From Trichlorobacter lovleyi SZ (GTDB lineage: Bacteria; Desulfobacterota; Desulfuromonadia; Geobacterales; Pseudopelobacteraceae), in NCBI RefSeq assembly GCF_000020385.1, contig NC_010814.1:3630001-3662000 (forward strand): DNA of 32,000 nt. Reading direction: 5' to 3'. Both the position numbers and the translations under genes were made by a program. This document shows positions 4,447 to 28,860 of this stretch, one piece after another. Under the pieces are notes generated by a model, which was given only the letters and a program-made list of their open reading frames with translations, was not told where the DNA came from and did no database searches. Every line of letters begins with the position of its first letter. Within the stretch, counting starts at the first letter, position 1.

Positions 4447-4448
4447 TT

Positions 4449-6328: not shown

Positions 6329-6343
6329 GACACATCCTCTTGC

Positions 6344-8875: not shown

Positions 8876-8895
8876 GATCAATCTCTTTTACTCAC

Positions 8896-10929
8896 TTAAT
8901 AAGCAGGCCTACCGACAGCAAGGTCAACCAGCAAGTTTATGCTTTTTTGCGGGTCACCAAGCGCTCTGGCCAGAAATGTCTTTCTAGCCTCCTGCACTTC
9001 CGATGAAAACCACCATTCCTCTGGAGCATCGGCAACGTGAACCAGAAACTCCGCTGCTGCCTGAGGATCTGTCTGGCAAATCCCAACAGTGATCAGAGGA
9101 TCAAAAAAATCCCTGTAGTACACATCCAAAAAACCAAGGGGGGCTGGAAACAGCAAGATGGTTGGAATATTCATACTGAGTGACTCAAGGTGCGTTGTGG
9201 CCAGATATGCAACCACAACCAAACGAGATGCAGCCATGACCTCCTTACAGCTTCTGGAAAGATCATCTCTGGTTGAATCTACCAGTAAATCTTCTAGAAA
9301 CGTCATATCATCCTGGCAGTTTTTCCAGTTACTACCATAGCCGCTCTTGGGATATCCACGGTAATGAATGTATTTTCTAACTCCCACTTCCAGAGAGTCT
9401 AGAAACTTTCTCTTAAACTGAATACCGTGGATAGCATGGAAGCCATTACCTGCCAAAGCAGAACTGCCACTCAGCAGTGAATCCTTCATGAAAGCCAAAC
9501 CGCTTACATACAGAATCCGATGTTCATAATGCGACCGGGGCTGCCGTTCTTCTCCAAAATCATAGAGTGAACCGCCTTGGACACCATTTCTGATTAATAT
9601 GCTATGGGCTCCATGAGCCATGTAGATATCGCAGAGTTTTGACCAGCGCGGCAATGCAGACGCAACAAAAGGATGCTCAGAATAATTATGTTCATGATAG
9701 ATTGTCTTGACGCCCTGTTGCATGAGGATAGCCAGCACAATCGGTTCGATTGCATCACCAATCCACAGCTCACTGACCACATATTTCAAACGACGGTATA
9801 ATGACATTTGAGTCATTATTGAACCGTACACAGCTCTCCAATCCTCAACAAATGTACGGGGAAACAACGCAGTGAAGGTAGAAAGGAAAAAATTGCTGAA
9901 ACGGTCCAGCTCAACCGCCGGTTGTGCAAGAAATGTCCGTTTTTCAAAATCAATCGTGGTACCACAGGTAAAAAGACGGTCATATCCAATCCGCTGAATC
10001 TCATATCCCGAACGGGTTGCCAGCTGCTGAGACCACTGTTCCTTGAACCACGAGCCAAGAATCCCCACAATAGGCTGATAGGGGGTTGGTGGAGTCGGAG
10101 AGGCTTGAACATAATCCGAGTGATACGCCTGTTGATAGAATGGGAAACGACCGGAATGGAAATAGCTACAATACATGCTGAATAGCTGTTCTTGCCCAAA
10201 ATCACGATCAGACAGAAACCAGTGCAGGTCATCATAGTCAACTGGCATATAAAAACATGCTGGGTCAAGCATAACAGCATGAACATCAGACACCGCCAAT
10301 GCAGATTCTGCAGCGACAAAGTGGTCATAGACTAATGTCAGATGCCGGTCAAGACTCATTCCAAGAGCCCTGCGCCAGAATTCTATCCCCAACTGGCTGC
10401 CATGAATGGCATCCAAACGTTCAGCAAGCAGAGGCATTACCTGCTCGGTAACAGCAGAAAGATATGATGCGGATGCCTTCAGACCCTCTGGATGAGTACG
10501 CTCTGTCGCAACCTCCTGAAAAGACCCACCCCCTAAAATTCTACGTAAGCATAATCCTGTGAACGCATCAGGGACGAGATACTCATCAGCACCAGCACCA
10601 TGTTGCAACGCCAAGGCCGACGGCAGAAAAAATCTCCTTCTTTTTGCCAATGTACCAGTCTTATCTACTGCTACCGACCATCCAAGTACCTCAAGACTTT
10701 TCAATGCCTCTGGGTTCCCATGACGAGCAGCCTCTTTAAAAAGGGCATAAGCTTGAGCAAATTTGCGCTCACGCACCATCATACATGCCATGAAATTTGC
10801 GTGATTCGGACAGTTCAAGGCTGTCAACGCAGTAGTGTTGCTGAACACGCTTGCGTCAGCCTTGGCATAGTTTCCGCCAGCAAGTAGATTAGATATATGA
10901 TCAGACAAATCATCCATAAACGATCTCAT
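8896..10929 (-). CDS. Large uncharacterised protein: N-terminal Sel1/TPR-like repeat, C-terminal putative transferase domain
   Basis: 677-aa ORF. The N-terminus has a Sel1-like repeat, FAQAYALFKEAARHGNPEALKSLEVLGW. The C-terminal part has YHEHNYSEHP...ILYVSG...IHYRGYPKS...RLVVVAYLATTHLESLSMNIPTILLF. This pattern recalls O-antigen-region putative transferases (LIC12162-type) and TagF-like folds. The coding call is solid; the function is a guess. Confidence 0.35.
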   Translation of the reverse strand: MRSFMDDLSDHISNLLAGGNYAKADASVFSNTTALTALNCPNHANFMACMMVRERKFAQAYALFKEAARHGNPEALKSLEVLGWSVAVDKTGTLAKRRRFFLPSALALQHGAGADEYLVPDAFTGLCLRRILGGGSFQEVATERTHPEGLKASASYLSAVTEQVMPLLAERLDAIHGSQLGIEFWRRALGMSLDRHLTLVYDHFVAAESALAVSDVHAVMLDPACFYMPVDYDDLHWFLSDRDFGQEQLFSMYCSYFHSGRFPFYQQAYHSDYVQASPTPPTPYQPIVGILGSWFKEQWSQQLATRSGYEIQRIGYDRLFTCGTTIDFEKRTFLAQPAVELDRFSNFFLSTFTALFPRTFVEDWRAVYGSIMTQMSLYRRLKYVVSELWIGDAIEPIVLAILMQQGVKTIYHEHNYSEHPFVASALPRWSKLCDIYMAHGAHSILIRNGVQGGSLYDFGEERQPRSHYEHRILYVSGLAFMKDSLLSGSSALAGNGFHAIHGIQFKRKFLDSLEVGVRKYIHYRGYPKSGYGSNWKNCQDDMTFLEDLLVDSTRDDLSRSCKEVMAASRLVVVAYLATTHLESLSMNIPTILLFPAPLGFLDVYYRDFFDPLITVGICQTDPQAAAEFLVHVADAPEEWWFSSEVQEARKTFLARALGDPQKSINLLVDLAVGRPAY

Positions 10930-10949: not shown

Positions 10950-13172
10950 TTAGATAAGCGCCTTCCAGTCGGCAATCGTTGGAGTAGCGCATACATCCAA
11001 ACGTTGTCGTACTGCTTTAGAAAAGCTCGGGGACCTCCAGCATCGTGCCAGATTTACAGCAGAGGCCAGACAGTCAGGCTCATCTGGCAAGCACTGGGCA
11101 ATCAGTATATTCTTTTCCAGCAATCCTTCTGTAACGGCAAGATATGATGCAGACTGAAATAACAGGCAAAAAGCGTTCGAAACGGGGTACACCTGCAACA
11201 GGCGATACACTCGTTCAAATGCCTGCGCAAATTCTCCATTTCTAAAAAGAAGCTGACACATCAGCAATTCATCTTCAGGATGCAGCACCGGCTGCCGCAC
11301 TACGATTTCCAATGCTTGGCTCCAACCACCCAACGCAAGTAATGTCTTAGCGCAGTTCCATCTCAGATCGCTGCCTTGCTCTACTGCTTTTTGGCTTTCT
11401 TCAAGCCGATCCGACACCCTTGCTGAAATGCTACCAACGGCAAAAGGGTCCAACGGCATACTGCCTATTGCGGTATGTAACCGCTTTAGTTCGTTGTCAT
11501 CAAAGACATGGGCGCTTCTCCCCCATAACCCAAGTAGCCGCACCGGCAACTGTGAGGTCAGCCAGTCGGTCGCGCCAGCCTCATTGACGATGCGCTGCCA
11601 GTCATCTCCGGCAAGGCGAAAAAATGCCGCCAGATATTCGCAGCCGAGCAGCCATGGATCAGGTGTGAACTCTGCAGGGTATATGTGAACAATCACACTC
11701 CAACCTGCATAGAGCTGAAACAGAGCAACATCAGGATAGGCGTCTGCCACAGCGGTTCCCAGCATCGGAATCAGATCACCTTGCCTGAGCGCCTTGACAA
11801 CGCCATCCCATGCCGCCTGCGCTCCGGTTGTTTCCTGGAGGCCATGCAGCGGTATCATGCGCCATGCAGGCTGTCTTTTCCCTTCTTCTAAAAGAATGTA
11901 GAGGTGATCCAAAAACAAGGGGAGAGATCTGCCAGCCGCCGGATACTTACGGTTACGCCTTTCAAGCAGCCGTTCACAGCATGCGTCTGGTGAGGCAAGG
12001 ATTTTTGAGACAAGCTCAAGCAGTTGTCGAAGACTGAATACAGTGTAACCAATCTCTGTCTCCTGTGGCATAGGTGCCGCATCCTGCTCATCGAAGCGTA
12101 TCGCTGGTTGCAACGTTGCCATTGCAAACACTTCCGAGGAACTCCCTCTATGGTGTATAAGTAGTGCCCCGTTTCGGTAGTCTTCGATATAGGAGGGCCC
12201 AAGGCTAAGTACAAATTGCGGGTTACTGGAAAAACGCTCAATCAATTCGCGATGGCACGCCTCATCTCCCGGAAAAGGCCGAAATATCAGACGGCGACCT
12301 GGAAACGACTCTAACAGGGATTCAACCGTTCTGATTGCATTGGAGCGTGCCTTGTCACTCTCGAGTTTCCAGTAGGAAAAATTATATATGATATCGACTG
12401 GTTGAGTGTCTGACATCCTGGAAATGAAGCTGTCGATTTTCGTATTTCCAAAAGGGACCAGTGTTAGCGTTTCTGAACGATGGTCGATAATTTCGCGAGG
12501 GAAAAGATCTATCAGAAGCTCTTCAAAGTTGGGGGCCAGGATATCCGGTTCAAAACTGGGACAAAGTAAATAGTCAAACATGAGCCCCGCGCCGTAAAAC
12601 ATGTACCCATAACGAGCAAGAATATCCGTGCCGTGAGGCTGCAGAATCCGCAACGTATTGGGAGGCAACCGACGCATCTTCTCCGCTGCATAGTCCAAGG
12701 CTATTACGGCATCAAGAAAATCCAGACGCACCAGCTTTTCCCCGGGCGGAGCCCATATCCAAGGGTAACCACTGAAGGCAGTATCCAGAAAACGATCTGG
12801 CGGAGTTAGGTGGATATCAGACATAACAACAAACAGCTGATATCGTTCATCATAACGCAACAGATCCGCCCAAGCGGTTTGCATCTGATTGAACATCGGG
12901 CCACTATATTCGTGGATAAGCAGCCCTATTGCTTTCTTGCCGCCGCAGGCCTGTTTTGCCAAAGAGAGCTGGAGATTAAAGAGCTCCTCAACCCAGTCAG
13001 CAGTGCCCTTTGAACCATCACAAAATCCCTCTAAAACCGCTGAGTGCTCAAATCCGAGTGTCTTCAGACACGAAAGATATGGCCCCAATACAGCAAGCTC
13101 AGGTTTACCATAAAGCTTGCCAGCAAGAAGCGATTGATCTGTAGCATAGATAGAGGAGTATGATCTTTTCAT
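10950..13172 (-). CDS. Large uncharacterised protein: N-terminal putative TagF-like (CDP-activated phospho-)transferase region, C-terminal helical-repeat region
   Basis: I chose the start at ATG 13172 (MKRSYSS), preceded by GGTGG and 11 nt after the upstream stop. The 13229 extension would overlap the kinase gene by 44 nt. LVPFGNTKID...VDIIYNFSYWK...RRLIFRPFPGD...YIEDYRNGALLIHHRGSSSEVFAMATLQPAIRF resembles the G-P-x-D / ILYAPTWR / K-HP / LITDYSS-FD layout of glycerophosphotransferases. The last ~150 aa are TPR-like helices. Function is inferred only. Confidence 0.35.
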   Translation of the reverse strand: MKRSYSSIYATDQSLLAGKLYGKPELAVLGPYLSCLKTLGFEHSAVLEGFCDGSKGTADWVEELFNLQLSLAKQACGGKKAIGLLIHEYSGPMFNQMQTAWADLLRYDERYQLFVVMSDIHLTPPDRFLDTAFSGYPWIWAPPGEKLVRLDFLDAVIALDYAAEKMRRLPPNTLRILQPHGTDILARYGYMFYGAGLMFDYLLCPSFEPDILAPNFEELLIDLFPREIIDHRSETLTLVPFGNTKIDSFISRMSDTQPVDIIYNFSYWKLESDKARSNAIRTVESLLESFPGRRLIFRPFPGDEACHRELIERFSSNPQFVLSLGPSYIEDYRNGALLIHHRGSSSEVFAMATLQPAIRFDEQDAAPMPQETEIGYTVFSLRQLLELVSKILASPDACCERLLERRNRKYPAAGRSLPLFLDHLYILLEEGKRQPAWRMIPLHGLQETTGAQAAWDGVVKALRQGDLIPMLGTAVADAYPDVALFQLYAGWSVIVHIYPAEFTPDPWLLGCEYLAAFFRLAGDDWQRIVNEAGATDWLTSQLPVRLLGLWGRSAHVFDDNELKRLHTAIGSMPLDPFAVGSISARVSDRLEESQKAVEQGSDLRWNCAKTLLALGGWSQALEIVVRQPVLHPEDELLMCQLLFRNGEFAQAFERVYRLLQVYPVSNAFCLLFQSASYLAVTEGLLEKNILIAQCLPDEPDCLASAVNLARCWRSPSFSKAVRQRLDVCATPTIADWKALI

Positions 13173-13185
13173 GACGCCACCACTA

Positions 13186-13752
13186 TCAGGAAGCTGTCGG
13201 CTTAGCCAGCTGTACCAGTCTAGGCACAAGCTGCTGAAGTATCAATTCTATCGTATCCTGAACAGAAGTAACACCGTCTGAAACATCAATACAAAGCTCT
13301 GGGGCAGTGGGCTCCTCAGCAGGAATATCCAGACCCAGTACATTTGAAATCTCGCCCAGGTCATACCGTGTATAGAGTTGCTTGGTCTGATCCCGTCTCC
13401 GACGGGTCGCTTCATCAGATTTCAGGTAGACCTCAAAATAACCGGGCAATGTTTGCCGATGGTATTCCTGCACCTCTCTGATGGCGGTATTGGCAGCAAC
13501 AATTATGATAATCCCCTGGTCAGCCAGCATAGCCGCCAGGCGACCGATACGCAGGGCATTTTCAGTCCGGCTCTTTAGGTCATAGTGGCTTGTTTCCATG
13601 CCAAGTACCACCCGCATGGCATCACCATCCAAGATGACGGCAGCATGGCCCACATTCTGCAATCGCTCTTTGAGTGCCCAGGCAACCGTTGTCTTTCCTG
13701 CATTTGGAAGACCGATGATCCAGATTATCAATTGGGTGCTCACAGTCTGCAT
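13186..13752 (-). CDS. cysC: APS-kinase-fold kinase; by context more likely a Cj1415-type cytidine diphosphoramidate 3'-kinase than a sulfate-assimilation CysC
   Basis: P-loop IIGLPNAGKTTVAWAL, ILDGDAMR, and FEVYLKSDEATRRRRD.TKQLY are the adenylylsulfate kinase hallmarks. No ATP sulfurylase or sulfotransferase is present in the window. The gene sits 2.3 kb downstream of the Cj1418/1417/1416-like genes. It starts at ATG 13752 and overlaps the upstream gene by 13 nt. Confidence 0.7.
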   Translation of the reverse strand: MQTVSTQLIIWIIGLPNAGKTTVAWALKERLQNVGHAAVILDGDAMRVVLGMETSHYDLKSRTENALRIGRLAAMLADQGIIIIVAANTAIREVQEYHRQTLPGYFEVYLKSDEATRRRRDQTKQLYTRYDLGEISNVLGLDIPAEEPTAPELCIDVSDGVTSVQDTIELILQQLVPRLVQLAKPTAS

Positions 13753-14774
13753 AGTTCTAAAAATTCAGAAAATTCAATCCAATCGAGATATTCACGGTCA
13801 CTACGGTGCAACAGTTTACCAGAAAGTTCGGGAAAAGCCGCCTGTAAGCCATCTCGAAATGTTGCGTCATTTTGTATAAAGCGTTGCGTTGTTTCAGCGT
13901 CCTTACAAACTATTCCCTCTATGTACAATTTTGTATCGTCATTTCTCAATCCAGATGCATTTCTGCGGAGCAGTATGATAGATGAGTGTGAACGATAATA
14001 ATCTGCAAAGCTGTCCAAAGAAAGATAGCAAACCTGTTTTCCGGTCCCAAGCGCAAGACTACCTTGTCCATGAACATTAAAGGAAATGTCAAAAACACCA
14101 CAGACTGCCCGGCTGAATAACAAGAAAAAATCTTCTGGCGAACGAACTGCATATAAAAGTGTTACACCCTTTGCAAAGGCGACTGATACCCGAGAAGGGA
14201 TAGACTTCTCATCACTGTAAGTTTGAATACGACAATTCCCATGCAGTTGTTTTGCCATAAGATTAAAAAATGGCGATATATCGAATCCCTCCCATGCAAC
14301 CCCCTGAACTGTGAGTTCGGGCCTGGCCATGGGTATTTTTGCCATATCCAGCAAGGTTGCACAGCACGCAATACCTTCAATACAACCAAAAAGAGTTTGG
14401 CCATGCTCATAATAGATTGGCGTAAGGTCATCGATAGTCTGCAAGGCAGCCCATTTGGAAAGATTGCTAGAAAAATCATCAGGATGATGGATCAGCTCCT
14501 GATACAACCGTCCCACCTCTGACAGGTCACCACTCGATAATGCCTGCAACATCCAGATGTAACAAGAAATATCCTGAGAATAACGGGCATGCATAAACCA
14601 ATCATAAGCCTGTTGCATGGTTCGGAAATCGTATATTTTCTTGATGGGAGGAGAGGTTGCTATAGCCCCAAATTCCAAATATGAAACAACTTCTCCACCA
14701 TCATTATAATGGTTATTCACCAGGGTCCTCCACGACGAATATTCCTTCTGGCAACTTTTTCGAATACGAATCAT
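13740..14774 (-). CDS. Hypothetical protein (no recognisable family)
   Basis: 344-aa ORF in operon phase with no motif I can place. The start is uncertain: ATG 14774 overlaps the upstream gene by 62 nt, and the next in-frame ATG is at 14618 (MQQAYDWF). Confidence 0.45.
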   Translation of the reverse strand: MIRIRKSCQKEYSSWRTLVNNHYNDGGEVVSYLEFGAIATSPPIKKIYDFRTMQQAYDWFMHARYSQDISCYIWMLQALSSGDLSEVGRLYQELIHHPDDFSSNLSKWAALQTIDDLTPIYYEHGQTLFGCIEGIACCATLLDMAKIPMARPELTVQGVAWEGFDISPFFNLMAKQLHGNCRIQTYSDEKSIPSRVSVAFAKGVTLLYAVRSPEDFFLLFSRAVCGVFDISFNVHGQGSLALGTGKQVCYLSLDSFADYYRSHSSIILLRRNASGLRNDDTKLYIEGIVCKDAETTQRFIQNDATFRDGLQAAFPELSGKLLHRSDREYLDWIEFSEFLELCRL

Positions 14775-15489
14775 TCAATCGCTTTATAGCCACCAGTCTG
14801 AGAAATGGGTGCATTACAAAATATGGTTTGCATTGTGGCGCAGAGATATTCTTTTGAGGCTTCGGGGATAATTTGCAGTGCCAACGTCGTAGCAGGCGCT
14901 CTAACACCATTGATCTTACATACGGATCAAGAATAGCATCAACAAAATGAGACTGATCTTGGTTAAGGTATATATTCACTCGAAAGGCAGCTTCTTCAAG
15001 GATTGGGCCATCATCAAGCTCCGCGCCCATGAAAAATGCTGTTCCATAAAGCGTCCCGTCCTCAAGCAAACTATAATAAAATGTTGTACTTCCTCGATAT
15101 GCTGGAAGCCGTCCTGGGTGTACATGGATAAACCGCTTGCCAGAGGACAAAATCTTGTCACGTAGTATGCCGCCACCGGTAAAAATCCATGTCTCAAGAT
15201 CAAAACCGTCCAGATACTGCAGCAGTTCATCATCATTTATATTGTTCGCCCCCACAGTATCCAGAGGTATCCCATGGCGCTTGCAATATTTTTCAGCTGT
15301 CTCTGTTACATCAAAATATGACGTATCATAGTGATATCGCATTGACTCAGCACAAATATCCTGAAAATGCAAAATAGAATGAGAAAGCATAACAACACGT
15401 ACGGGATGAACAGCAGCGCGCTCAAAGGCCGCTAGATAAGCAAGGCTTCTCATGCCGGGAAACAAAATCATGCCAAAGGAATTATCCAT
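14713..15489 (-). CDS. Formyltransferase-fold protein (Formyl_trans_N-like; candidate sugar N-formyltransferase)
   Basis: FIHVHPGRLPAYRGSTTFYYSLLEDGTLYGTAFFMGAELDDGPIL matches the formyltransferase core (H-P-S-LP-YRG ... D.G.D.GPI). I chose the start at ATG 15489 (MDNSFGMILFPG), preceded by AAGGTG with 5-nt spacing and overlapping the upstream stop by 8 nt. Confidence 0.6.
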   Translation of the reverse strand: MDNSFGMILFPGMRSLAYLAAFERAAVHPVRVVMLSHSILHFQDICAESMRYHYDTSYFDVTETAEKYCKRHGIPLDTVGANNINDDELLQYLDGFDLETWIFTGGGILRDKILSSGKRFIHVHPGRLPAYRGSTTFYYSLLEDGTLYGTAFFMGAELDDGPILEEAAFRVNIYLNQDQSHFVDAILDPYVRSMVLERLLRRWHCKLSPKPQKNISAPQCKPYFVMHPFLRLVAIKRLNDSYSKKLPEGIFVVEDPGE

Positions 15490-16024
15490 GCAACACCTTA
15501 GCAACGGATTCCTGCTCAAGCACAAGGACTGCCCTCACTAGCGAAACATCGTAGATATCCCCTATCAAGACATGATCTATCACCTTCAATGCAGAGTTCA
15601 GTTCGTTCAAGGACAATGTTCTTGAAAAACGCACCAATAATATAGCTGCAAAAAGAGCCAGGTCGTCTGCTATCGCGTATGTCTCGCCTACCTTGTGAAA
15701 GCAACTATCGTACTGAGCCGCAAGCCGTCCGAATAACGCAAACTTCTTTTGCAACATGTAGACAAGCTCAGAATCGGATGTCCCTGTAATCCGCTCATGA
15801 CGCCACAATGTTGTAAGAAGCTGAATAAGCGTTCTTGCGGCATCAGATTCTTCATGTGCATCTACATAGCTATCAATCTGCTTTAGCGCCGTATGAGCAT
15901 CTGGCTTACGAGCCCCAAGGGAGTGGTATCGTTGTTCCCAAAAGCAAGAGATACCATCCGCTATATCAAGCAGTGGAATTTCGCCCTCGTTTTTAGTGTA
16001 AGAGCCGACCGAGCTCACTACCAT
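15482..16024 (-). CDS. Hypothetical, predicted all-helical protein (no recognisable family)
   Basis: About 180-aa ORF in operon phase. ATG 16024 overlaps the upstream TAG (ATGGTAG). The track start at 16030 is a TTG two codons upstream. Confidence 0.45.
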   Translation of the reverse strand: MVVSSVGSYTKNEGEIPLLDIADGISCFWEQRYHSLGARKPDAHTALKQIDSYVDAHEESDAARTLIQLLTTLWRHERITGTSDSELVYMLQKKFALFGRLAAQYDSCFHKVGETYAIADDLALFAAILLVRFSRTLSLNELNSALKVIDHVLIGDIYDVSLVRAVLVLEQESVAKVLHG

Positions 16025-16779
16025 CTCCAATCATGGTGCCATACTGTTTTACAGCTATCCACCGAGCAAACCATTTCTTCATATATTTCACGGTCAGTCT
16101 GTACATCAACTTCACACCAACGACCGTTTACAGAACAAACCTGCACAGTGACATCCTGCTGTAAAGCATGCCTGATCCACGAAGTCATATCCAAACACGC
16201 TTGTTCTTTTGCTGAAAGCTTCAGATATATGTCAAAAAACTGTTTCCACCCCTGGGGTTTAAATAACAAAAGTCCCATGTACTGTGCTTCGACTTCTTCA
16301 AGCGTCTTTGGTTTGCCACCAATCTCCTTCAAAATACCACATTCCTCTTGGAAGGTTTCAGCATCAGCTATCGGATCTTCGCCCCTCAAACGCCAGAGTT
16401 CCAGCCAAAGCCGGTCAGCAGTAATTGCAATTGAGCCGTCGCAGGCGATAAGCGCACGGACATGGTCCGGGTGGTAAACAATATCTGAGTAACTGATGAT
16501 AGTTGGCCCTGAAGCTAGCCAATCCGTTGCACAAACAAGTGAAGAGGCCATATTGGTCTCTGCCCAGCGTGTATTGTCCACTGTAGAAAAATCACCATAC
16601 AGCAACTCTCCGCGATAACCCCTTACCACTAGTATTTCAGTAACTCCCGCTGCACGCAAACTTGCAAGTTGCCACTGCAGAAGATTCTTACCTGCAAGCA
16701 TAGTACAACATTTGGGGCGTCCCTCCGTATCACTCCCCATTCTGGAACCACGACCTGCAGCAAGTATAACGGCTTTCAC
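16018..16779 (-). CDS. Nucleotidyltransferase (MobA/LicC-like NTP transferase); candidate Cj1416-type CTP:phosphoglutamine cytidylyltransferase
   Basis: N-terminal KAVILAAGRGSRMG signature (GxG[ST]R). 253 aa. The GTG start forms a GTGA overlap with the upstream amidotransferase-like gene. Confidence 0.7.
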   Translation of the reverse strand: MKAVILAAGRGSRMGSDTEGRPKCCTMLAGKNLLQWQLASLRAAGVTEILVVRGYRGELLYGDFSTVDNTRWAETNMASSLVCATDWLASGPTIISYSDIVYHPDHVRALIACDGSIAITADRLWLELWRLRGEDPIADAETFQEECGILKEIGGKPKTLEEVEAQYMGLLLFKPQGWKQFFDIYLKLSAKEQACLDMTSWIRHALQQDVTVQVCSVNGRWCEVDVQTDREIYEEMVCSVDSCKTVWHHDWRW

Positions 16780-17417
16780 TCGTTAGACCTCCTAAAATGA
16801 CTCGCAAAGAGTGCTTGATCAAACGACTTAAATGACTGTTCACGCTCTGGATGCCACATGATACCAAGCAGCTTCATATCATGTGCATAAACCGCCTCAA
16901 TTGCTCCATCAACCGCTGACACAGCCCATACCTTTAATGGCGAAGCCTCATCGGGTATTGCCTGCCAAGCATGATACGAATTGACTTGTTGAGACGGCAA
17001 CAAGTGCGGCAATGGCCGTCCTTCAAACACACGCAAAGCGTGGTTCATCCCAATGTGAAGATCTTGGGATACAGGCGACAGAACACCACCAAGCTGCTGC
17101 ACCATGAACTGCATTCCACGGCAAATACCAATGACCGGATGGTTCCTTGCCATCATCCACGAAAGTGCTAACGATTCGCTTTCGTCCCTCTCAATCGACG
17201 CCCCAATATCGTTTCCGCCGGTTAGAACCAGTCCACAAGGTTTCAGTTCATCTAGCAGGCGCCGCGCCATAACAACATTGTTGGGAAGCAGCAGCGGCAT
17301 GCAGTCCGGAAGAGCGCAACCTAAAAAACTCCACCAGTCGTGCGCAATGCAATCTCGCACCTCAGCATGCATACCCTCTGCTGCTACTCTCATGGATATA
17401 GCCAAAAGCGACTTCAT
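16776..17417 (-). CDS. Class I glutamine amidotransferase / peptidase C26-like hydrolase; candidate Cj1417-type gamma-glutamyl-CDP-amidate hydrolase
   Basis: LVLTGGNDIG, nucleophile elbow PVIGICRGMQFMV, and His-Glu pair in GIMWHPE. 213 aa. The start shows an ATGA overlap with the upstream kinase-like gene. Confidence 0.7.
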   Translation of the reverse strand: MKSLLAISMRVAAEGMHAEVRDCIAHDWWSFLGCALPDCMPLLLPNNVVMARRLLDELKPCGLVLTGGNDIGASIERDESESLALSWMMARNHPVIGICRGMQFMVQQLGGVLSPVSQDLHIGMNHALRVFEGRPLPHLLPSQQVNSYHAWQAIPDEASPLKVWAVSAVDGAIEAVYAHDMKLLGIMWHPEREQSFKSFDQALFASHFRRSNE

Positions 17418-19801
17418 AACGGATGCAAACTTTGACGTTCGGCATCAAGCTCACAACGTTTGGCAGCAGCTACCTTGTCAAATAATATTTGCCCACAACC
17501 TATAGCTGCCGGTATGTCATTTTCACTGCATCTGATAGCCATATGGGAATTTGCTCCGCCATATTGCGTTACCAGCCCCGCTATACACCGGGTAAACAGC
17601 CAGTCGTAGCCGGGATCAGCGTTTTCAATGCAGACGATGCATCCATTCAGATCAAGATCTCCCCGACTTGTACTGTCAAGGCGTACAACCTTGCCCTCCA
17701 CATGTCGACGCGTAACCCAGTTGGGGGTACTGCGATGCTGAGGCACCACATAAACATCCCGGCATGAGCGTATTAGGTATCCTAATTTGAGATTTTTACC
17801 AGCATCTGAAATGTTTTTGCCTTGTCGAATCAACGGTTCAAAGTATTCACGCGGCATGGAAAGCAAAGGAGCAATAGAGACTCTTAGTAAATCTTCAATA
17901 TTTAGCCAAGAGAGGTCATCCCGAGTTAAACCGATCACATCCCCCCATACGGCAAGCGATTCAAGTGCATCTGAAAGGCTGCGGGTAAAAATAAACTTGG
18001 CATACTCCCGTCCAGCTATAGCTTTTTCTGCATAGAGCAACAACTCTTCTGCCTGGAGGTGCCCCAAGCCAGCCTCATGTAACAATTGATCCAGGTTACG
18101 TTTTTCAGCCGGCTCTAGTTCAAATGGTTCGTGGCAATAGGTTGTAGAGGTATATAAACCTGCCAATACTTCAGGTCTATCAGCATAACGAGGGCTTAGG
18201 ATATCATAGGTGCCTGGGCGTAAATGTCCGTAACGAGACATGAAGTCTCCTGGCGAGAGTCCTCCCTTTGCAACGCTTTGCATATCTGTACTCATCACGC
18301 TCGTAATTGTCTTGACGCTTTTTCTGAAAGTACGAAGCCGCTCCGGCAACATTGCATGCCGATCTACGGCAGACCTGAGTAATGCCTCAGCCATAAAGGC
18401 ATGGCGCGCAATCATAGAGAAAGGTAATGTACCAAGAGTTCTACACTCTTCCAGCAACTTCCTCACCCAGGCCAGTAGGGCATACGGCTGTTTACCAAGG
18501 ACACATGAATCATGAAACGATTTTTGAGACATCACAAGCCGTTCAAGGGTTCCAAGCGCAACCATGAGTGGTGAGGATGCCTCTGCACTGACATTTTGCC
18601 GTGTCAGATATTGATAACAGCTAGACACTTGATCAAAACGCTGTCCAGACAGTAGTCCGGGATAGCGCGCGGCAATTGTCTGTTGAAATGTAAAATCGTA
18701 GACTGTGCTAACGATTCCGAACTCAACCTTATCATGCAACTCGGGGTTCTTGTCCAGGCGGTCGAGCCAGGCATTTACCAGCAGTTCAGCAGTATCGTCC
18801 AGAATTCCAGCAGCAAGGAACGAATTAAAACTACAACGTACATCAATATACGGGCGTCCCGCGAGAATCAGCATCAGCTCTTCAGGCGGCACCGACCGAT
18901 ACCCCATTTTTTCTCGTGCAAGGCTCCAGACGCGCTGCGTTATCAAATGACGATACAATGATGTAGCCAACGGTCGGGGAGTAACTCCGATAATCTCGGC
19001 TGGATTCCAATCCGGCATAACACCGAAGAGGGTTCTCTGTCCAAAGAGGCCAGGCCGAGGTGACGAGAGACGCTCAACAAAGTCTTCCACAAAAGATATT
19101 CCATGAGCAGTCTGATCAACAATTTCAGCGGCCCATTTTCCTGCAACAGCAATGGGGCGCACCTGAAGAACATAGATGCAACCGGCCAAATCTCTGCAAA
19201 ACTCTATATCAAGGGCGTCGCTATGAAAAAAGTTTTCAAGGCGGCGCGCAAGGTAAACAAGCTCCAACAGACGGGGAGAATCAAAATCAGTATTTCTGAA
19301 ACCACGATATACATATACGGTTTTACCACCAACACCGCTGGTTACCGTATCGGTTTGAGAGGTTTCATCATCATAATTCAGTACATAGTAAGGAGCACCA
19401 TCATCTGCAGCACGAGTCATGATCACGCCACTCATGACAGTACCCACAACCATCTGCTGTATCAAAACCTGGTCTTTGGCGGTATTCACGCCATATGAAT
19501 CAATGACTTGCTTAACAGCTTGACATATGGCGTTTTCTTGATCCACTGGTACATTAAGAATGCTTTCAAATACGCCTGCATTGGAACAGCTTACAGTATC
19601 CTCCTGACGGCAACTGCTACGCACCGCAATTTTGCCTATAGCTCCTCCGAAAGAGCTCTTGATACGTACCAAAACAGTATCTTGGGAATCAAACCACTCC
19701 TGCACAGAAAAATAGAGCAAAGGCGGAACATTAAATCCAGCCTGATGCAAAATTTCCAATATCTCTGCTTTTGATTGCGCTTGTTTAACCTGATGCTCCA
19801 T
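17414..19801 (-). CDS. PEP-utilising-family kinase with N-terminal PPDK_N ATP-grasp and extreme C-terminal phosphohistidine swivel domain; candidate Cj1418-type L-glutamine kinase
   Basis: N-terminus IAVRSSCRQEDTVSCSNAGVFESILNV (the PPDK_N pattern VAVRSS..ED..SFAG...LNV). C-terminus LVTQYGGANSHMAIRCSENDIPAAIGCG, with the His about residue 753 of 795, so there is no room for a C-terminal PEP/pyruvate TIM barrel. ATG 19801 is preceded by GGAG at 5 nt. Confidence 0.7.
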   Translation of the reverse strand: MEHQVKQAQSKAEILEILHQAGFNVPPLLYFSVQEWFDSQDTVLVRIKSSFGGAIGKIAVRSSCRQEDTVSCSNAGVFESILNVPVDQENAICQAVKQVIDSYGVNTAKDQVLIQQMVVGTVMSGVIMTRAADDGAPYYVLNYDDETSQTDTVTSGVGGKTVYVYRGFRNTDFDSPRLLELVYLARRLENFFHSDALDIEFCRDLAGCIYVLQVRPIAVAGKWAAEIVDQTAHGISFVEDFVERLSSPRPGLFGQRTLFGVMPDWNPAEIIGVTPRPLATSLYRHLITQRVWSLAREKMGYRSVPPEELMLILAGRPYIDVRCSFNSFLAAGILDDTAELLVNAWLDRLDKNPELHDKVEFGIVSTVYDFTFQQTIAARYPGLLSGQRFDQVSSCYQYLTRQNVSAEASSPLMVALGTLERLVMSQKSFHDSCVLGKQPYALLAWVRKLLEECRTLGTLPFSMIARHAFMAEALLRSAVDRHAMLPERLRTFRKSVKTITSVMSTDMQSVAKGGLSPGDFMSRYGHLRPGTYDILSPRYADRPEVLAGLYTSTTYCHEPFELEPAEKRNLDQLLHEAGLGHLQAEELLLYAEKAIAGREYAKFIFTRSLSDALESLAVWGDVIGLTRDDLSWLNIEDLLRVSIAPLLSMPREYFEPLIRQGKNISDAGKNLKLGYLIRSCRDVYVVPQHRSTPNWVTRRHVEGKVVRLDSTSRGDLDLNGCIVCIENADPGYDWLFTRCIAGLVTQYGGANSHMAIRCSENDIPAAIGCGQILFDKVAAAKRCELDAERQSLHPL

Positions 19802-19849: not shown

Positions 19850-20811
19850 CTAATCACACATCCCATCACCTGCAACAGTGTGATTAAGTCTCCATACACC
19901 ATTCTCTTTGCCCCAGATATGCGGCGAACGCCAACTGTCTATAACTTCATGAAAATATTCTTCGCTAATGCCGCAGTACTCAAGAAAAGTCTTGTAATAC
20001 TGTTTTGGAAACTCGCCATCAAACCGTTTTACGAGCTGCACCCCCTCCTCGCGGGTTAAATGGCCATCCCGTATTTCGTGAGCCGTATCCGAGGTGGCGC
20101 GACCAATACCGAATTTTATGAATGAGAGATAATAGTGAAATCCATCCAGTTGGTCGTCAATTGAAGCATATTTTGAATACGTTCCTTCATTTCTTTCAGA
20201 TCTGGCAGAAAAACCTGTATGCTCAGCTGCATAGTAGTAATTTTCCTGCGGTATCCACTTATGGTAGTAAGAAAAGAAATGTATCTTCAAATTTGCTTTA
20301 TCCATTTCTTCAAGAGGTGGGGCAAGGTAAGGGACAAGATCATTCTGGTCAACACCATAATGAACCATGTCTTCTGGCGGAAGGTTTGAAAAGTAGTGCG
20401 TTTTCTGATCAGAGCTATAGTTCCTGTCGGGCCTGTATGCGTTGGTCATGTCACCACCATATTCGACCTCTCCGTTTTCTCCATACATGATTAACGGTAT
20501 CTTATGCTGCACTGCAATCTGGAGAGGAAAGTTATGCTGCCCAAAAATAAATGGCTGAAACGGATCTCCCAGTATTTCAAAAGAAAGCTTGGTCAACTTT
20601 CTATGAACAATGCCGTTGGGCGTCCCGAGGACATTATCAAGTCCACCGACATGCACCATATTCTGAAAGTTTCTCCAGCCAATGTCGGTATACAAATGAG
20701 GAGCCCATGTAACCGTAAGCACTTTCATGCCATATTTATACTTCAGCATATGGGCTACGAAAGCGCTATCCTTACCACCGCTGGCCGGCACCATGAAGTG
20801 GTTGCGGTTTT
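19850..20811 (-). pseudogene. N-acetyl sugar amidotransferase (WbuX/WbpG/PseA family), C-terminal ~320 codons, separated from its N-terminus by the IS element
   Basis: PP-loop MVPASGGKDSAFVAHMLKYKYGMKVLTVTWAP followed by GDPFQPFIFGQ and PLIMYGENGEVEYGG. The track ORF 19850..20875 borrows its first 21 codons (MRCCMEPLLSKGSAHCLYSCL) from antisense IS sequence. Confidence 0.75.
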
Positions 20812-20841
20812 TGAGACATGAGTATAAGCAATGAGCCGATC
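20812..20841 (+). repeat. IS left terminal inverted repeat
   Basis: TGAGACAT...ATAAGCAAT...CCGATC blocks are shared with the reverse complement of 22010..22048. Confidence 0.7.
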
Positions 20842-20861
20842 CCTTTGAAAGGAGAGGTTCC

Positions 20862-21167
20862 ATGCAGCACCGCACCCGTTACAGTTCAGAATTTAAGGCC
20901 AAGGTAGCCTTGGCAGCTTTAACCGAATCCAAGACGCTGGCCGAGCTCGCCAGCGAGTACAAAGTTCACCCAAGCCAGATCAGCAACTGGAAACAGGAAC
21001 TCGTTGAAAACGCCTCAGACCTCTTCGGCAAAGGGAAGAAGCAAGAGGTCAATCACGACGCCGAAGTAGCCGAGCTGCACCGCGTCATCGGCAAGCTCAA
21101 GGCGGAAAACGATTTTTTGTCAAATCTGCCCGGTCTGAGCTTGACCGGGCGCAGAAACAGAAAGTGA
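20862..21167 (+). CDS. IS3-family transposase OrfA (helix-turn-helix)
   Basis: MQHRTRYSSEFKAKVALAALTESKTLAELASEYKVHPSQISNWKQEL plus a leucine-zipper-like tail (AELHRVIGKLKAENDFL). GGAGAGG lies 5 nt upstream of the ATG. Confidence 0.85.
   Translation: MQHRTRYSSEFKAKVALAALTESKTLAELASEYKVHPSQISNWKQELVENASDLFGKGKKQEVNHDAEVAELHRVIGKLKAENDFLSNLPGLSLTGRRNRK
21113..21119 (+). promoter_or_regulatory. Candidate programmed -1 ribosomal frameshift heptamer T TTT TTG joining orfA to orfB
   Basis: gat ttt ttg in the orfA frame. The -1 frame is open from here (FFVKSARSELDRAQKQKVIATGHPDVSVERRCELLGVARASYY) through the DDE domain, giving the usual OrfAB fusion layout. Confidence 0.55.
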
Positions 21168-21991
21168 TCGCCACCGGCCATCCTGATGTTTCTGTTGAAC
21201 GCAGATGTGAACTGCTCGGCGTAGCGAGAGCCAGCTACTACCGTGGTCCGGCATCCGGCCTTCGTTCCGGTGATCTTGCACTCATGCGGCGGATCGACGA
21301 ACTCTATCTGCAGCATCCCTGGATGGGAAGTCGCTCTTTGGCAGATCATCTGACAATACCAGAAGAGCCGGTAGGCCGTGACCGGGTTCGCCGTCTGATG
21401 CTGCTGATGGGCATCCAGTCTCTGTCGCCCAAGCCGGGAACCAGCAAGCGGCATCCCAAGCATCCGGTTTACCCATATCTGCTGCGGGGACTAACCATTG
21501 ACCGTCCCAATCAGGTGTGGGCAACCGACATCACCTACATTCCGATGGCCAGAGGCTTCATGTACCTGGTTGCCATCATGGACTGGGGCACCAGAAAGGT
21601 GCTCTCTTGGCGCCTGTCCAACACGCTTGACACCCGCTTCTGTGTCGAAGCACTCAAGGAGGCACTGTTCAAATACGGAGCCCCCGAGATATTCAACAGC
21701 GACCAGGGGTGCCAGTTCACCAGCGAGGCATTCACCTCAGTGCTGAAACAGTGGAACGTTAGGATCAGCATGGATGGCAAAGGCCGTTTCAAGGACAACA
21801 TCTTCATTGAACGGCTCTGGCGTACCCTCAAATACGAGAGGATCTACCTTAGAACCTACGAGACCGGAACTGAGCTTTTCAAAGACCTGACAGACTGGTT
21901 CAACTGGTACAACAACGGCAGAAAGCATACATCACTTGACAAGCAGACACCGGATGAGGCGTATTACCAAAGACTGAAGCTGGCAGCCTGA
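21164..21991 (+). CDS. IS3-family transposase OrfB (DDE/rve integrase domain), probably made as an OrfAB fusion
   Basis: NQVWATDITYIPMARGFMYLVAIMDWGTRKVLSW (first D), IFNSDQGCQFTS (second D), ISMDGKGRFKDNIFIERLWRTLKYERIY (E). The frame is open upstream to the slippery site at 21113. Confidence 0.85.
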   Translation: MIATGHPDVSVERRCELLGVARASYYRGPASGLRSGDLALMRRIDELYLQHPWMGSRSLADHLTIPEEPVGRDRVRRLMLLMGIQSLSPKPGTSKRHPKHPVYPYLLRGLTIDRPNQVWATDITYIPMARGFMYLVAIMDWGTRKVLSWRLSNTLDTRFCVEALKEALFKYGAPEIFNSDQGCQFTSEAFTSVLKQWNVRISMDGKGRFKDNIFIERLWRTLKYERIYLRTYETGTELFKDLTDWFNWYNNGRKHTSLDKQTPDEAYYQRLKLAA

Positions 21992-22009
21992 GGCCAGAAA
22001 CGACAACCA

Positions 22010-22048
22010 GATCGGTATATTGCTTATTCTACCCATCAGGATGTCTCA
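22010..22048 (+). repeat. IS right terminal inverted repeat
   Basis: Its reverse complement begins TGAGACAT and shares the ATAAGCAAT and CCGATC blocks with the left end. It carries about 9 extra nt relative to the left repeat. Confidence 0.7.
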
Positions 22049-22052
22049 CAAA

Positions 22053-22304
22053 TCACGACCAGCTAACCAACACTTCAAAACCTCCATCGGTTCTTTTATA
22101 CCTCTTGCACAAATCTACTAGTTCCCGCTCCCGCTGTGTCCAGTCAAAAACAGTATTTTTCTTGACGGAAAAGTTGCAGGCGGAACAAACCCCTTCTTCG
22201 TCAAAGGTAATGCGGGGGCGTTGATTGGACATAGTGCATTTTTTGCAAAACTTTATCTCTGCAGGCAGATTATAGCGCTGCAGAACATTCTTATTCTCAA
22301 TCAT
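22053..22304 (-). pseudogene. N-acetyl sugar amidotransferase (WbuX/WbpG/PseA family), N-terminal fragment with Zn-ribbon
   Basis: MIENKNVLQRYNLPAEIKFCKKCTMSNQRPRITFDEEGVCSACNF...FDWTQRERELVDLCKRYK is the characteristic N-terminus of this family. The frame ends at TGA 22055..22053, 4 nt before the IS right end. The start overlaps the hisH-like stop (TAATG). Confidence 0.75.
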
Positions 22305-22942
22305 TACATTGCCTCGTTTCGTATCTGCGCAAGCATGCCAAGCCCTTCCGAACCGCTTTTTTCAGGATGAAACTGCATACCAACAATATTGCCCTTTCTG
22401 ACAGCGGCACAAAATTCAAACCCTTCATATTCTGTAGTTGCCGTTATAATAGATGAATCGACAGGTTCAACATAATAGGAATGGACATAATAGACACAAG
22501 AATCCTTTCTCAGATGGCAGAAAAACGGTTCACGAGTCTCGGAACCATTTTGCTTCAAAACATTCCACCCAACATGTGGAATTCTCAGCGTGATGTTGTT
22601 ACACACGCTCGGGAAACGCCTGACCACACCTTGAATAAGATTCAGCCCAGCATTATCCCCAAACTCTTCGCTTCTGGAAAAAAGCAGTTGCATACCAAGA
22701 CAAATGCCAACAAGTAGCTTCCCTTGCCTTGCATGGTCAATGACAGCATCAAAAAGGCCCAGCTGTTGAAGATTTTCTATTGCCTCGCCGAAGGCGCCTA
22801 CACCAGGCAGCATGAGCAAGTGGCAGTCTCTGACATCCTGCGGATTTGAAGACACCGTTACATGAAGTCCAACTTGCTCGCAGGCATTCCTGAGGCTAAA
22901 AAGATTTCCAAGGTGGTAGTCGATGATGAGGGCCGAACGCAT
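22304..22942 (-). CDS. hisH: HisH-like glutamine amidotransferase subunit (WbuY-type, glycan amidation paralogue of IGP synthase)
   Basis: IIDYHLGNLFSLRNA...LLMLPGVGAFG...LVGICLGMQLLF..SEE...PHVGWN...YYVHSY...GMQFHPEKS. It is adjacent to a HisF-like gene and a WbuX-like gene rather than to his biosynthesis genes. Confidence 0.8.
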   Translation of the reverse strand: MRSALIIDYHLGNLFSLRNACEQVGLHVTVSSNPQDVRDCHLLMLPGVGAFGEAIENLQQLGLFDAVIDHARQGKLLVGICLGMQLLFSRSEEFGDNAGLNLIQGVVRRFPSVCNNITLRIPHVGWNVLKQNGSETREPFFCHLRKDSCVYYVHSYYVEPVDSSIITATTEYEGFEFCAAVRKGNIVGMQFHPEKSGSEGLGMLAQIRNEAM

Positions 22943-24534: not shown

Positions 24535-24538
24535 GAGC

Positions 24539-27510: not shown

Positions 27511-27511
27511 T

Positions 27512-28393: not shown

Positions 28394-28860
28394 CACCGTT
28401 CACTCCAGCGTCTCTCCATAATGGTGTGGCCAGTACGTCTGCATATCTCAACGGGCACAAAACCAGCATCTTCATATGTCTTGCGAGCATAATGATTCTC
28501 TGGGTGTACCTTCAGCATCATTCTGTCGATACCATTCAAACGACACCAACTAATGCAGTATTCCAAGGCAAATCTCGCAAGTCCTTTACCTGAATAGGCA
28601 TGCGAGATGTAAACACCGAAGGAAGGGCGCTGGTACCCTTCATCAAATCCCCTCAGCATAAACAAACCGATCAGTATATTGCCAAAGCCAATCCCCCAGT
28701 AGCGATCCTGAACCACCGATCCAAGGCGCACTGCGAGACTTTTTTCGTCCGCGTCAAAGGGTATAAAATACTGTTTATAGTCATTCGAATCCGATGACAA
28801 TAGCCTGGAAAGTGCTGCAGCATCGGACTTGGCGAGTCGCGCCACACTCAAGTCCTTCAT
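28393..28860 (-). CDS. GNAT-family N-acetyltransferase (PseH-like position)
   Basis: GNAT core YISHAYSGKGLARFALEYCISWC...IDRMMLKVHPENHYARKTYEDAGF. I chose the start at ATG 28860 (MKDLSVARL), which forms an ATGA overlap with the NeuB-type gene. Confidence 0.7.
   Translation of the reverse strand: MKDLSVARLAKSDAAALSRLLSSDSNDYKQYFIPFDADEKSLAVRLGSVVQDRYWGIGFGNILIGLFMLRGFDEGYQRPSFGVYISHAYSGKGLARFALEYCISWCRLNGIDRMMLKVHPENHYARKTYEDAGFVPVEICRRTGHTIMERRWSER

Follow-up and report, generated by a model that had tools for sequence, protein, structure and literature searches.

Does the chromosome of Trichlorobacter lovleyi SZ encode a pathway to a phosphoramidate-modified glycan and, if so, is its product the group known from Campylobacter? 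The question is raised by a 32,000-nucleotide stretch (NC_010814.1, positions 3,630,001 to 3,662,000; hereafter the window), in which a preliminary description made from the sequence had recognised relatives of four Campylobacter jejuni capsule enzymes. According to the Raushel laboratory, these enzymes reportedly act in the order Cj1418, Cj1416, Cj1417 and Cj1415 toward a donor of O-methyl phosphoramidate (MeOPN). The Campylobacter donor route starts with N-phosphorylation of glutamine; cytidylylation, hydrolysis to cytidine diphosphoramidate and 3′-phosphorylation follow (PMC6429109; 10.1101/2024.11.05.622173). Glycans with phosphorus-nitrogen (P-N) bonds have been regarded as a peculiarity of Campylobacter: according to a 2019 review, MeOPN-modified sugars of the capsule were known up to then from Campylobacter species alone (PMC6429109), and in a 2022 review the glutamine kinase is described as specific to C. 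jejuni (PMC9561416).

Here we describe a module of seven genes at 13186-19801 of the window, all on the minus strand and with reading frames that overlap or abut. The interpretation that we favour, with a probability of about 0.62, is that this coupled module produces a modified phosphoramidate for a nonulosonic acid (NulO) glycan, within a low-GC, strain-variable glycosylation island of T. lovleyi.

Four homologues of the Campylobacter donor enzymes

Four open reading frames (ORFs) of the module correspond to the enzymes of the Campylobacter route.

17414..19801 (-): L-glutamine kinase homologue, Cj1418 type, 795 aa, with an ATP-grasp N-terminal region and a phosphohistidine swivel domain
16776..17417 (-): gamma-glutamyl-CDP-amidate hydrolase homologue, Cj1417 type, 213 aa, a class I amidotransferase
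16018..16779 (-): CTP:phosphoglutamine cytidylyltransferase homologue, Cj1416 type, 253 aa, NTP_transf_3
13186..13752 (-): cytidine diphosphoramidate 3′-kinase homologue, Cj1415 type, 188 aa, adenosine phosphosulfate (APS) kinase fold

The C. jejuni reference was the locus of strain GP013 (L034), with ORFs of 779, 200, 253 and 170 aa. It was retrieved with the motif MPDWNPAE, which is invariant among 29 aligned kinase homologues and was back-translated with AT-biased codons, by scanning one genome per species. By BLASTP the kinase aligned with Cj1418 at 33.4% identity across 784 aa (E 2e-138), the cytidylyltransferase with Cj1416 at 34.1% across 249 aa (E 1e-50), the hydrolase with Cj1417 at 27.5% across 200 aa (E 2e-15), and the 188-aa protein with Cj1415 at 38.3% across 167 aa (E 2e-34, 111 bits). 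The four pairings are reciprocal within the window and L034. Each C. jejuni donor protein matches one window ORF only, despite the presence in the window of HisH and a PseF-like cytidylyltransferase; HisH gave no match to Cj1417.

Domains were assigned with Pfam and NCBIfam models, each against its family cutoff, and structures were predicted with AlphaFold2 and compared with the PDB using Foldseek. The only Pfam domains of the kinase are PPDK_N (7.4e-14) and the PEP-utilizers mobile domain (5.2e-12); it has no phosphoenolpyruvate (PEP)/pyruvate TIM barrel. It matches NF004508 (PRK05849) with 995.6 bits against a cutoff of 501, from position 6 to 788 of the 789 in the model. No PEP synthase model scored above 51.4 bits (cutoff 883) and the rifamycin phosphotransferase (Rph) model scored 34 bits (cutoff 999), and alignments with solved chains of PEP synthase and rifampin phosphotransferase are confined to kinase residues 700-771. 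His753, in the motif GGANSHMAIR, aligns with His737 of Cj1418, each histidine being 42 residues away from the C-terminal end of its kinase; like MPDWNPAE, His753 is invariant across the 29 homologues. His737 is reported to be the catalytic histidine of Cj1418 (Taylor et al. 2017/2018).

The other three proteins were assigned in the same way. The hydrolase is a Peptidase_C26/GATase protein with intact Cys-His-Glu motifs (GICRGMQ and WHPE), and its best match among 18,950 NCBIfam models is NF045546 (Cj1417), covering positions 2-187 of 198. The cytidylyltransferase matches NTP_transf_3 (1.8e-17) and carries the motif ILAAGRGSRMG. The 188-aa protein matches Pfam APS_kinase (1.6e-29) and passes NF004041 (PRK05541; 229 bits, cutoff 127), but falls under the cutoff of the apsK equivalog TIGR00455 (108.5 bits versus 138.7), and it is nearer to Cj1415 (111 bits) than to the best solved APS kinase (82 bits). 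A close sequence relative of the Cj1415-Cj1418 family was not found in the PDB. Pfam and NCBIfam scans of the window revealed no sulfate adenylyltransferase, sulfate-activation gene or sulfotransferase.

Start and stop codons overlap as ATGA between kinase and hydrolase and as GTGA between hydrolase and cytidylyltransferase, and the 188-aa gene starts 2,266 nt past the end of the cytidylyltransferase gene. The preliminary description had reported both couplings, the 2.3-kb spacing, and a kinase with PPDK_N, a phosphohistidine motif about 42 residues from its end and no TIM barrel; the overlaps, the measured distance and the agreement of Pfam with the alignment bear this out. Its match to the Cj1415-Cj1418 set likewise holds for full-length homologues, with BLASTP reciprocal within the two loci. 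On sequence grounds the four-gene set is far beyond a chance match, because each C. jejuni protein has a unique counterpart in the window and the order recurs in more than 70 unrelated genomes. The further proposal that this organism makes a phosphoramidate donor is supported by homology and conserved linkage: it very probably does so, because kinase, hydrolase and cytidylyltransferase adjoin one another in 74 of the 80 informative loci described below.

Three conserved genes between the cytidylyltransferase and the 3′-kinase

The 2.3-kb interval, whose content the preliminary description had overlooked, holds three conserved module genes.

15482..16030 (-): X, small helical protein, 182 aa, no Pfam or NCBIfam family
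14713..15525 (-): FT, formyltransferase-like enzyme, 270 aa, probable true start at an internal Met at ~15471
13740..14774 (-): methyltransferase-fold protein, 344 aa, probable start at ~14720 (326 aa)

X proteins elsewhere are helical, of 170-250 aa and without a family, and their gene lies directly 5′ of the FT gene in all FT-type loci. A hidden Markov model of the X family built without the window ORF detected the 182-aa ORF at E 3.5e-13, its only match among the 185 stop-to-stop segments of the window. The FT family comprises 575 representatives at E<=1e-10; among its best 150 members, 19 of the 20 long ones are X-FT fusions, and a fusion also occurs in a Pacearchaeota locus. A single 416-aa gene at the same place in a related locus (L121) had raised the suspicion that the 182-aa and 270-aa ORFs are one frameshifted gene. 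This idea was dropped, because the L121 gene is unrelated and the window ORFs belong to two distinct families, X and FT.

With Met-tRNA formyltransferase (4iqf) the FT profile aligns at E 1e-12, and it also matches sugar N-formyltransferases and PseJ. Its invariant features are the loop H134-x-H136-P-G...L-P-x-Y-R-G-S-T and D171-x-G173, so that the active-site motif reads HxH...D where formyltransferases have NxH...D, with His136 and Asp171 invariant. Arg26, Tyr30, Arg204 and His239-Pro240 are additional invariant residues of the family.

The 344-aa protein gave no sequence-family match in Pfam or NCBIfam, none of its 86 homologues has a Pfam domain, and hhalign detected no match between its family and sulfotransferase-like, DUF2972, TagF-like or methyltransferase families. 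Its AlphaFold2 model has a pLDDT (predicted local distance difference test) of 91.8. The top Foldseek matches in the PDB are S-adenosylmethionine (SAM) methyltransferases (for example 5t38, E 3.5e-6, probability 1.0), which make up most of the top 50 matches listed, with TM-scores of only 0.35/0.49. From this model, the protein is predicted to have a class I SAM-methyltransferase fold.

In Aeromonas veronii all seven families are contiguous, beside dTDP-amino-sugar genes, in the order methyltransferase fold, 3′-kinase, X, FT, kinase, hydrolase and cytidylyltransferase. In a Geobacteraceae metagenome-assembled genome (MAG; L125) six of the seven are contiguous, the methyltransferase-fold protein included, and are followed by a TagF-like/radical-SAM fusion. 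Because of the contiguity in these two genomes, the unit in the window is taken as seven genes.

Distribution of the module and of two accessory sets

Of the candidates scored, 3,562 clusters belonged to the kinase family at E<=1e-10. A scan with the AT-rich-codon pattern of the kinase motif gave at least 120 kinase-anchored loci, examined as 8-kb blocks, of which 80 had at least 1.6 kb of sequence 3′ of the kinase and were informative for gene order. Represented among the kinase-anchored loci are Helicobacter, Leptospira, Legionella, Shewanella, Vibrio, Pelagibacteraceae, Prochlorococcus and SAR86, as well as Fibrobacterota, Desulfovibrionales, Methanosarcinales and DPANN archaea. The hydrolase was present in 78/80 and the cytidylyltransferase in 75/80, the latter ~630 nt past the kinase end, and the two nearly always follow the kinase directly and in that order. 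The 3′-kinase occurred in 43 of the 120 blocks, upstream or downstream. The kinase-hydrolase-cytidylyltransferase trio is an ancient, mobile module, present in hundreds of bacterial and archaeal lineages, abundant marine groups included; it is so widespread that its occurrence outside Campylobacter is not unusual in itself.

The trio is accompanied by one of two mutually exclusive accessory sets. The first contains a methyltransferase of the Cj1419/Cj1420 type (39 kinase-anchored loci), often together with DUF2972 or Sulfotransfer_3-fold proteins; the second consists of FT and the preceding X (22 kinase-anchored loci, the window among them). There is no overlap between them (0/39). A reverse scan from FT homologues in metagenome contigs, in which 571 of 600 candidates were confirmed, yielded 80 loci, 43 of them with enough flanking sequence. 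In these 43 loci the FT gene was accompanied by the cytidylyltransferase in 41, X in 39, the kinase in 37 and the hydrolase in 36. Counted over 21 well-flanked metagenome loci, the kinase was present in 18. Cj1419-type methyltransferases were found in none of the 22 FT-type loci and in none of the 80 FT-anchored metagenome loci. In many loci a methyltransferase-fold protein or another class I methyltransferase lies beside FT. The type of accessory set follows kinase relatedness in 46 of 53 cases.

We found no paper linking the formyltransferase-like gene, NulO or flagellin glycosylation to the phosphoramidate pathway. The four donor genes are further homologues of known enzymes, while the seven-gene variant with X and FT is widespread and apparently undescribed.

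Several loci contain fusions within the module: kinase with an N-terminal CTP_transf_like domain, kinase with 3′-kinase, and 3′-kinase with X (for example L125 4268-7126, L089 1556-4417 and L116 5368-6429, and the kinases of 910-1,016 aa in L046, L067 and L087). Such fusions are further evidence that the module proteins act together. A Sulfatase-family protein (alkaline-phosphatase superfamily) of ~375 aa is encoded in 31 of 43 FT-type loci from the FT-anchored metagenome set (L128-L207), often in two copies; these loci are mostly marine, SAR11-like and without the 3′-kinase. The protein could possibly be an alternative installing enzyme, or a pyrophosphatase. The trio is also common in single-cell genomes and isolates of Pelagibacteraceae and Prochlorococcus (L018, L023, L025, L028, L043, L051-L053, L061, L063, L065, L072-L074, L085, L097, L111 and others), and for this reason P-N glycan chemistry may be abundant in the surface ocean. 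In L123, the JGI relative, the hydrolase adjacent to the kinase is split into two ORFs of 127 and 94 aa (12388-13040), and a second, intact hydrolase-cytidylyltransferase pair lies 3 kb downstream (15919-17366). Since the second cytidylyltransferase is 40% identical to C. jejuni Cj1416, versus 34% to the window protein, part of the L123 module looks, from these sequences, as if it had been replaced by a xenologous copy.

Candidate transferases

Three genes on the minus strand next to the module encode candidate transferases.

10950..13229 (-): GT-B-fold transferase candidate, 759 aa, with C-terminal helical repeats resembling tetratricopeptide repeats (TPR-like)
8896..10929 (-): LIC12162-family transferase, TIGR04331 539 bits versus cutoff 225
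6344..8881 (-): SPASM/radical-SAM and WbsX glycosyltransferase fusion, Glyco_tran_WbsX 4e-134, SPASM 5e-13, Radical_SAM 1.4e-6

The AlphaFold2 model of the 759-aa protein has a pLDDT of 71.6, and its N-terminal half matches BshA (6d9t), a Bcs3-CMP complex (8a0c) and OGT. The protein is 100% identical to a T. lovleyi protein, and among 5.8 billion proteins only 5 belong to its family. With hhalign its match to TagF-like proteins was only 7.7%, and DUF2972 and sulfotransferase-like families matched the window transferase candidates at 0.4% at most. One protein of 1,322 aa (P0124) is a natural fusion of a 759-aa homologue with a LIC12162 domain; this fusion suggests, at the level of sequence, that the window genes at 10950-13229 and 8896-10929 may act as one unit. 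In L121 and L123, too, the LIC12162 gene follows that of the GT-B/TPR protein. LIC12162 is unlikely to be the phosphoramidate transferase in general, since it was found in just one of the 120 kinase-anchored blocks and in none of the 80 FT-anchored loci.

At other module loci sulfotransferase-fold, TagF-like or sulfatase-family proteins are found instead, the TagF-like phosphotransferases in at least 12 loci, and the installing enzyme is evidently interchangeable between loci. In the Geobacteraceae MAG, radical-SAM/SPASM is fused to a TagF-like Glyphos_transf domain (L125 11021-13417). Both radical-SAM/SPASM-transferase fusions, that of the window and that of L125, adjoin the phosphoramidate module.

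A strain-variable NulO glycosylation island

On the other side of the module lie the NulO genes and an interrupted copy of wbuX.

22304..29933 (-): NulO biosynthesis genes encoding HisH, HisF/WbuZ, a PseF-like CMP-transferase, a B12 radical SAM enzyme, a CBS and LegC/PseC-type aminotransferase, an AP_endonuc_2 TIM barrel protein, a GNAT protein and NeuB
22056..22304 (-): codons 1-83 of wbuX, the 5′ end of the gene; 77% identity to the corresponding residues (1-83) of intact L121 WbuX
20794..22065 (+): IS3-family insertion sequence (IS) element, 1,272 bp, with orfA 20862-21167 and orfB 21164-21991 in the usual overlap; NF033516 260 bits
19850..20793 (-): 3′ part of wbuX (N-acetyl sugar amidotransferase), TIGR03573 profile positions 64-343 only

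The order of the NulO genes is identical in the window, L121 and L126, the last being one of two T. lovleyi-like contigs (L126 and L127) that were compared together with L121, L123 and L125. NeuB passes TIGR03569 (413 bits, cutoff 399.65), while the PseF-like CMP-transferase (175 bits, cutoff 205.7) and the LegC-type aminotransferase (361 bits, cutoff 420) fall under their equivalog cutoffs. Neither a 4,6-dehydratase nor a hydrolysing 2-epimerase was found in the window, and because of this the NulO route may depart from the canonical one or depend for its completion on genes elsewhere in the genome. Two relatives with ~70% identical kinases keep the layout NulO genes, module, GT-B/TPR, LIC12162 and WbsX; in one of them the gene set is of the legionaminic type, and from the other X-FT is missing. 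With NeuB and other NulO genes in the window, no kps export gene there, and this context kept in two relatives, the non-capsule NulO setting of the preliminary description is upheld.

A xylose-isomerase-like TIM barrel protein (AP_endonuc_2, 27512-28396) lies between the GNAT and aminotransferase genes in the window, L121 and L126. The B12-binding radical SAM enzyme (24539-25993) is kept in L121 and L126. NCBIfam gives it only weak best matches, P-methyltransferase families (Sden_1168, PhpK) among them; C-methylation of the NulO or a reaction at phosphorus may be its role. The window holds a partial sigma-54 activator at 31090-31932, and the genes located upstream of the island are those of a HAMP histidine kinase and the sigma-54 response regulator.

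The GC content is 43-51% over most of the island, and ~55% at the right edge of the window (31001-32000), in the IS3 element and in one interior kilobase (5001-6000). At the element wbuX breaks off after codon 83 or so; the target duplication is seen as a 4-bp overlap of two L126 alignments. The 3′ part of the gene corresponds to residues 79-392 of L121 WbuX, which is intact. L126, a contig from another sample, carries an intact 392-aa wbuX. Because the sequences flanking the element on both sides are 99.97-100% identical to this uninterrupted allele, the insertion is, on the sequence comparison, recent and strain-specific. It may alter or silence the product in this strain. A near-identical IS3 copy was not found in the plasmid collection. 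Pattern scans for sigma-70 promoters, terminators and sigma-54 (-24/-12) sites were at chance level.

The second T. lovleyi-like contig, L127, is 99.9% identical to the window over 1-7384 and then diverges inside the WbsX gene (~7385). There the WbsX domain forms the C-terminus of a 1,972-aa protein with LIC12162 and methyltransferase domains, and not of a protein with a SPASM/radical-SAM N-terminus. As this breakpoint lies within a gene, the island is mosaic between strains, with recombination at the level of domains. Past the window start, L127 encodes an aminotransferase, a methyltransferase and large GT2/TPR proteins, then flbT ~8.7 kb away. Phase variation of the Campylobacter kind was considered and rejected, because the window has no homopolymer tract of at least 8 G/C or at least 10 A/T.

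A model for the pathway and its alternatives

Taken together, these observations support a model in three steps. In the first, for which homology is observed and activity deduced from it, the kinase would N-phosphorylate L-glutamine and the cytidylyltransferase would join the product to CMP, giving CDP-L-glutamine. The class I amidotransferase would then remove glutamate to yield cytidine diphosphoramidate, and the APS-kinase-fold enzyme would phosphorylate the 3′-OH, producing a donor that resembles 3′-phosphoadenosine 5′-phosphosulfate (PAPS). In the second step X, the FT-like enzyme and the methyltransferase-fold protein would serve as a conserved tailoring set in place of the Cj1419/Cj1420 methyltransferases. 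X and FT would make up a single enzyme of two domains, which would acylate (in the simplest case formylate) the amidate nitrogen while the phosphoramidate is still bound to the nucleotide; a donor-bound substrate is proposed because X-FT accompanies the donor genes whatever the glycan. The group would next be methylated by the methyltransferase-fold protein, so that a modified phosphoramidate and not plain MeOPN would result. In the third and weakest step, the GT-B/TPR protein, LIC12162 and the WbsX fusion would build or decorate the NulO glycan, probably on flagellin, and one of them would install the group. More generally, we tentatively suggest that the X-FT pair and the methyltransferase could represent a second coherent branch of the pathway, leading to N-acylated (N-formyl, possibly O-methyl) phosphoramidate in organisms from SAR11 and Aeromonas to DPANN archaea and Methanosarcinales; we hold this branch to be possible, with the odds against it.

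Several observations weigh against the model. The hydrolase scores 81.7 bits with NF045546, under the equivalog cutoff of 250. The 3′-kinase is present in only 6 of the 43 FT-anchored metagenome loci, and the PAPS-like step is therefore not constant in the FT variant; NeuB lies near FT in only 4 of the 43, so NulO is not a general acceptor. In FT, the invariant His134 sits at the position of the catalytic Asn of formyltransferases, and the Formyl_trans_N score of 25.7 bits is just under the Pfam gathering score of 26.1, so formyl transfer by FT is not assured. We know of no precedent for N-formyl phosphoramidate. The medium-confidence model of the 759-aa protein fits a glycosyltransferase and a TagF-like phosphotransferase alike. 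The window contains no flagellin gene, flbT being found only on the second-strain contig, and the IS3 insertion may leave the locus non-functional in this strain.

Four other explanations were weighed against the same evidence. The product could be ordinary MeOPN, with the methyltransferase-fold protein as its O-methyltransferase and with X-FT formylating an amino sugar or an amino group of the NulO. The four donor enzymes are homologous to those of Campylobacter, and the frequent class I methyltransferases beside FT would suit this explanation, as would the profile matches of FT to sugar N-formyltransferases and PseJ and the dTDP-amino-sugar genes of the Aeromonas locus. N-formylated amino sugars and NulOs are common. 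However, X-FT stays with the trio across NulO, dTDP-sugar, SAR11 and archaeal contexts in both search directions, and its complete exclusion of Cj1419-type methyltransferases is unexpected for an acceptor-specific sugar formyltransferase; we consider ordinary MeOPN unlikely. A different proposal is that phospho-L-glutamine, or another CDP-linked phospho-amino acid, is moved by a GT-B/TagF-like enzyme while the amidotransferase is otherwise employed. The TagF-like phosphotransferases beside the module, the absence of the 3′-kinase from many FT-type loci and the precedent of FtaD, which transfers a CDP-linked phospho-amino acid (CDP-N-methylthreonine) onto the C. difficile flagellin glycan, speak for it. 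The hydrolase, however, is kept directly after the kinase in 78/80 loci with its Cys-His-Glu motifs intact, and the window retains the 3′-kinase, which makes such a transfer very improbable.

The locus might instead be a decaying or silent remnant in this strain, either because the IS3 element, oriented opposite to the module, blocks transcription from within wbuX or because the pathway to the acceptor NulO is broken. wbuX is indeed split, with its 4-bp duplication, and is intact in another T. lovleyi population, and the stretch that separates the IS from the kinase gene has no convincing promoter, with promoter-like sites at chance level. Against this, neither the seven ORFs of the module nor the transferase genes downstream are disrupted: they carry no frameshifts and keep their coupling overlaps, and the flanks show the insertion to be recent. 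IS3 elements can carry outward promoters. The proposal also concerns expression and not the encoded functions, and we regard it as decidedly unlikely. There remains the reading without any phosphoramidate pathway, in which the 795-aa protein would be of the PEP-synthase or rifampin-phosphotransferase type and the APS-kinase homologue would make PAPS for sulfation. It draws on the shared domains PPDK_N, PEP-utilizers and APS_kinase, and the preliminary description had raised both parts as alternatives. PEP synthase and Rph models reach at most 51 bits against cutoffs of 598-1700, compared with 995.6 bits for the kinase family to which the protein belongs, and the match to Cj1418 is full-length. 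The small kinase fails the apsK cutoff and is nearer to Cj1415, and within the window neither a sulfate adenylyltransferase nor a sulfotransferase accompanies it. This reading is largely refuted, with only a marginal chance left to it.

Comparison with known systems and implications

The C. jejuni MeOPN locus (Cj1415c-Cj1422c) resembles the window in its four donor enzymes, in the order of the trio with overlapping genes and in the position of the active-site histidine. In L034 a DUF2972 transferase fragment (3.5e-38) and two methyltransferases precede the donor ORFs. The window differs in having the X, FT-like and methyltransferase-fold genes between cytidylyltransferase and 3′-kinase, and in its NulO genes near a flagellar gene, without kps genes or phase-variable tracts. 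No window homologue of the Cj1419/Cj1420 methyltransferases or of the Cj1421/Cj1422-type DUF2972 transferase was detected (BLASTP; TBLASTN, methyltransferases at E<0.01), and the end product therefore need not be MeOPN.

The C. difficile type A flagellin system FtaABCD shares with the module a dedicated cytidylyltransferase, methyltransferase tailoring on the nucleotide and GT-B/TagF-like installation on a flagellin glycan. FtaC and FtaD thus offer a working model for the second and third steps proposed here. The likeness is one of pathway logic: the chemistry of FtaABCD is a phosphodiester to threonine, whereas that of the window would be a P-N group derived from glutamine. With CysC-type APS kinases the 188-aa protein has its fold in common, and the Campylobacter homologue yields a 3′-phosphorylated, PAPS-like donor. 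Unlike PAPS systems, the window has no sulfate-activation genes or sulfotransferase, and the protein lies under the apsK cutoff. The formyltransferases Fmt, PurN, VioF and PseJ have a comparable loop (xHxSLLPxxRG, versus xHPGxLPxYRG in FT) and the same catalytic Asp. FT differs from the Fmt type in its invariant His for Asn and in an obligate helical X partner or domain in place of the usual C-terminal domain.

If the N-acylated branch exists, it would provide a chemically new glycan substituent with which the NulO glycan of T. lovleyi, probably linked to flagellin, would be decorated, and biological P-N glycan chemistry would be far commoner and more diverse than the single Campylobacter example. 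The module makes a concrete prediction of a new surface modification that is approachable in the culturable T. lovleyi, Aeromonas veronii and Shewanella. In Campylobacter, surface P-N groups influence phage recognition and serum resistance; for that reason, relatives of these groups elsewhere may matter for phage-host and host-microbe interactions.

Unmethylated phosphoramide groups have been described, without genes assigned to them, in the lipopolysaccharide (LPS) of Xanthomonas campestris and Shewanella sp. MR-4 (cited in PMC3907429). Shewanella genomes carry the FT-type module, for example at L113, and the module offers a genetic handle on the phosphoramide groups of both Shewanella and Xanthomonas. 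For the Borg elements of Methanoperedens, MeOPN-like clusters with homologues of Cj1416-Cj1418 have been predicted by structure prediction, in a preprint that reports neither the X, FT and methyltransferase-fold set nor a NulO context (bioRxiv 10.1101/2024.11.05.622173). The trio was also recovered from Methanosarcinales contigs by the kinase-motif scan.

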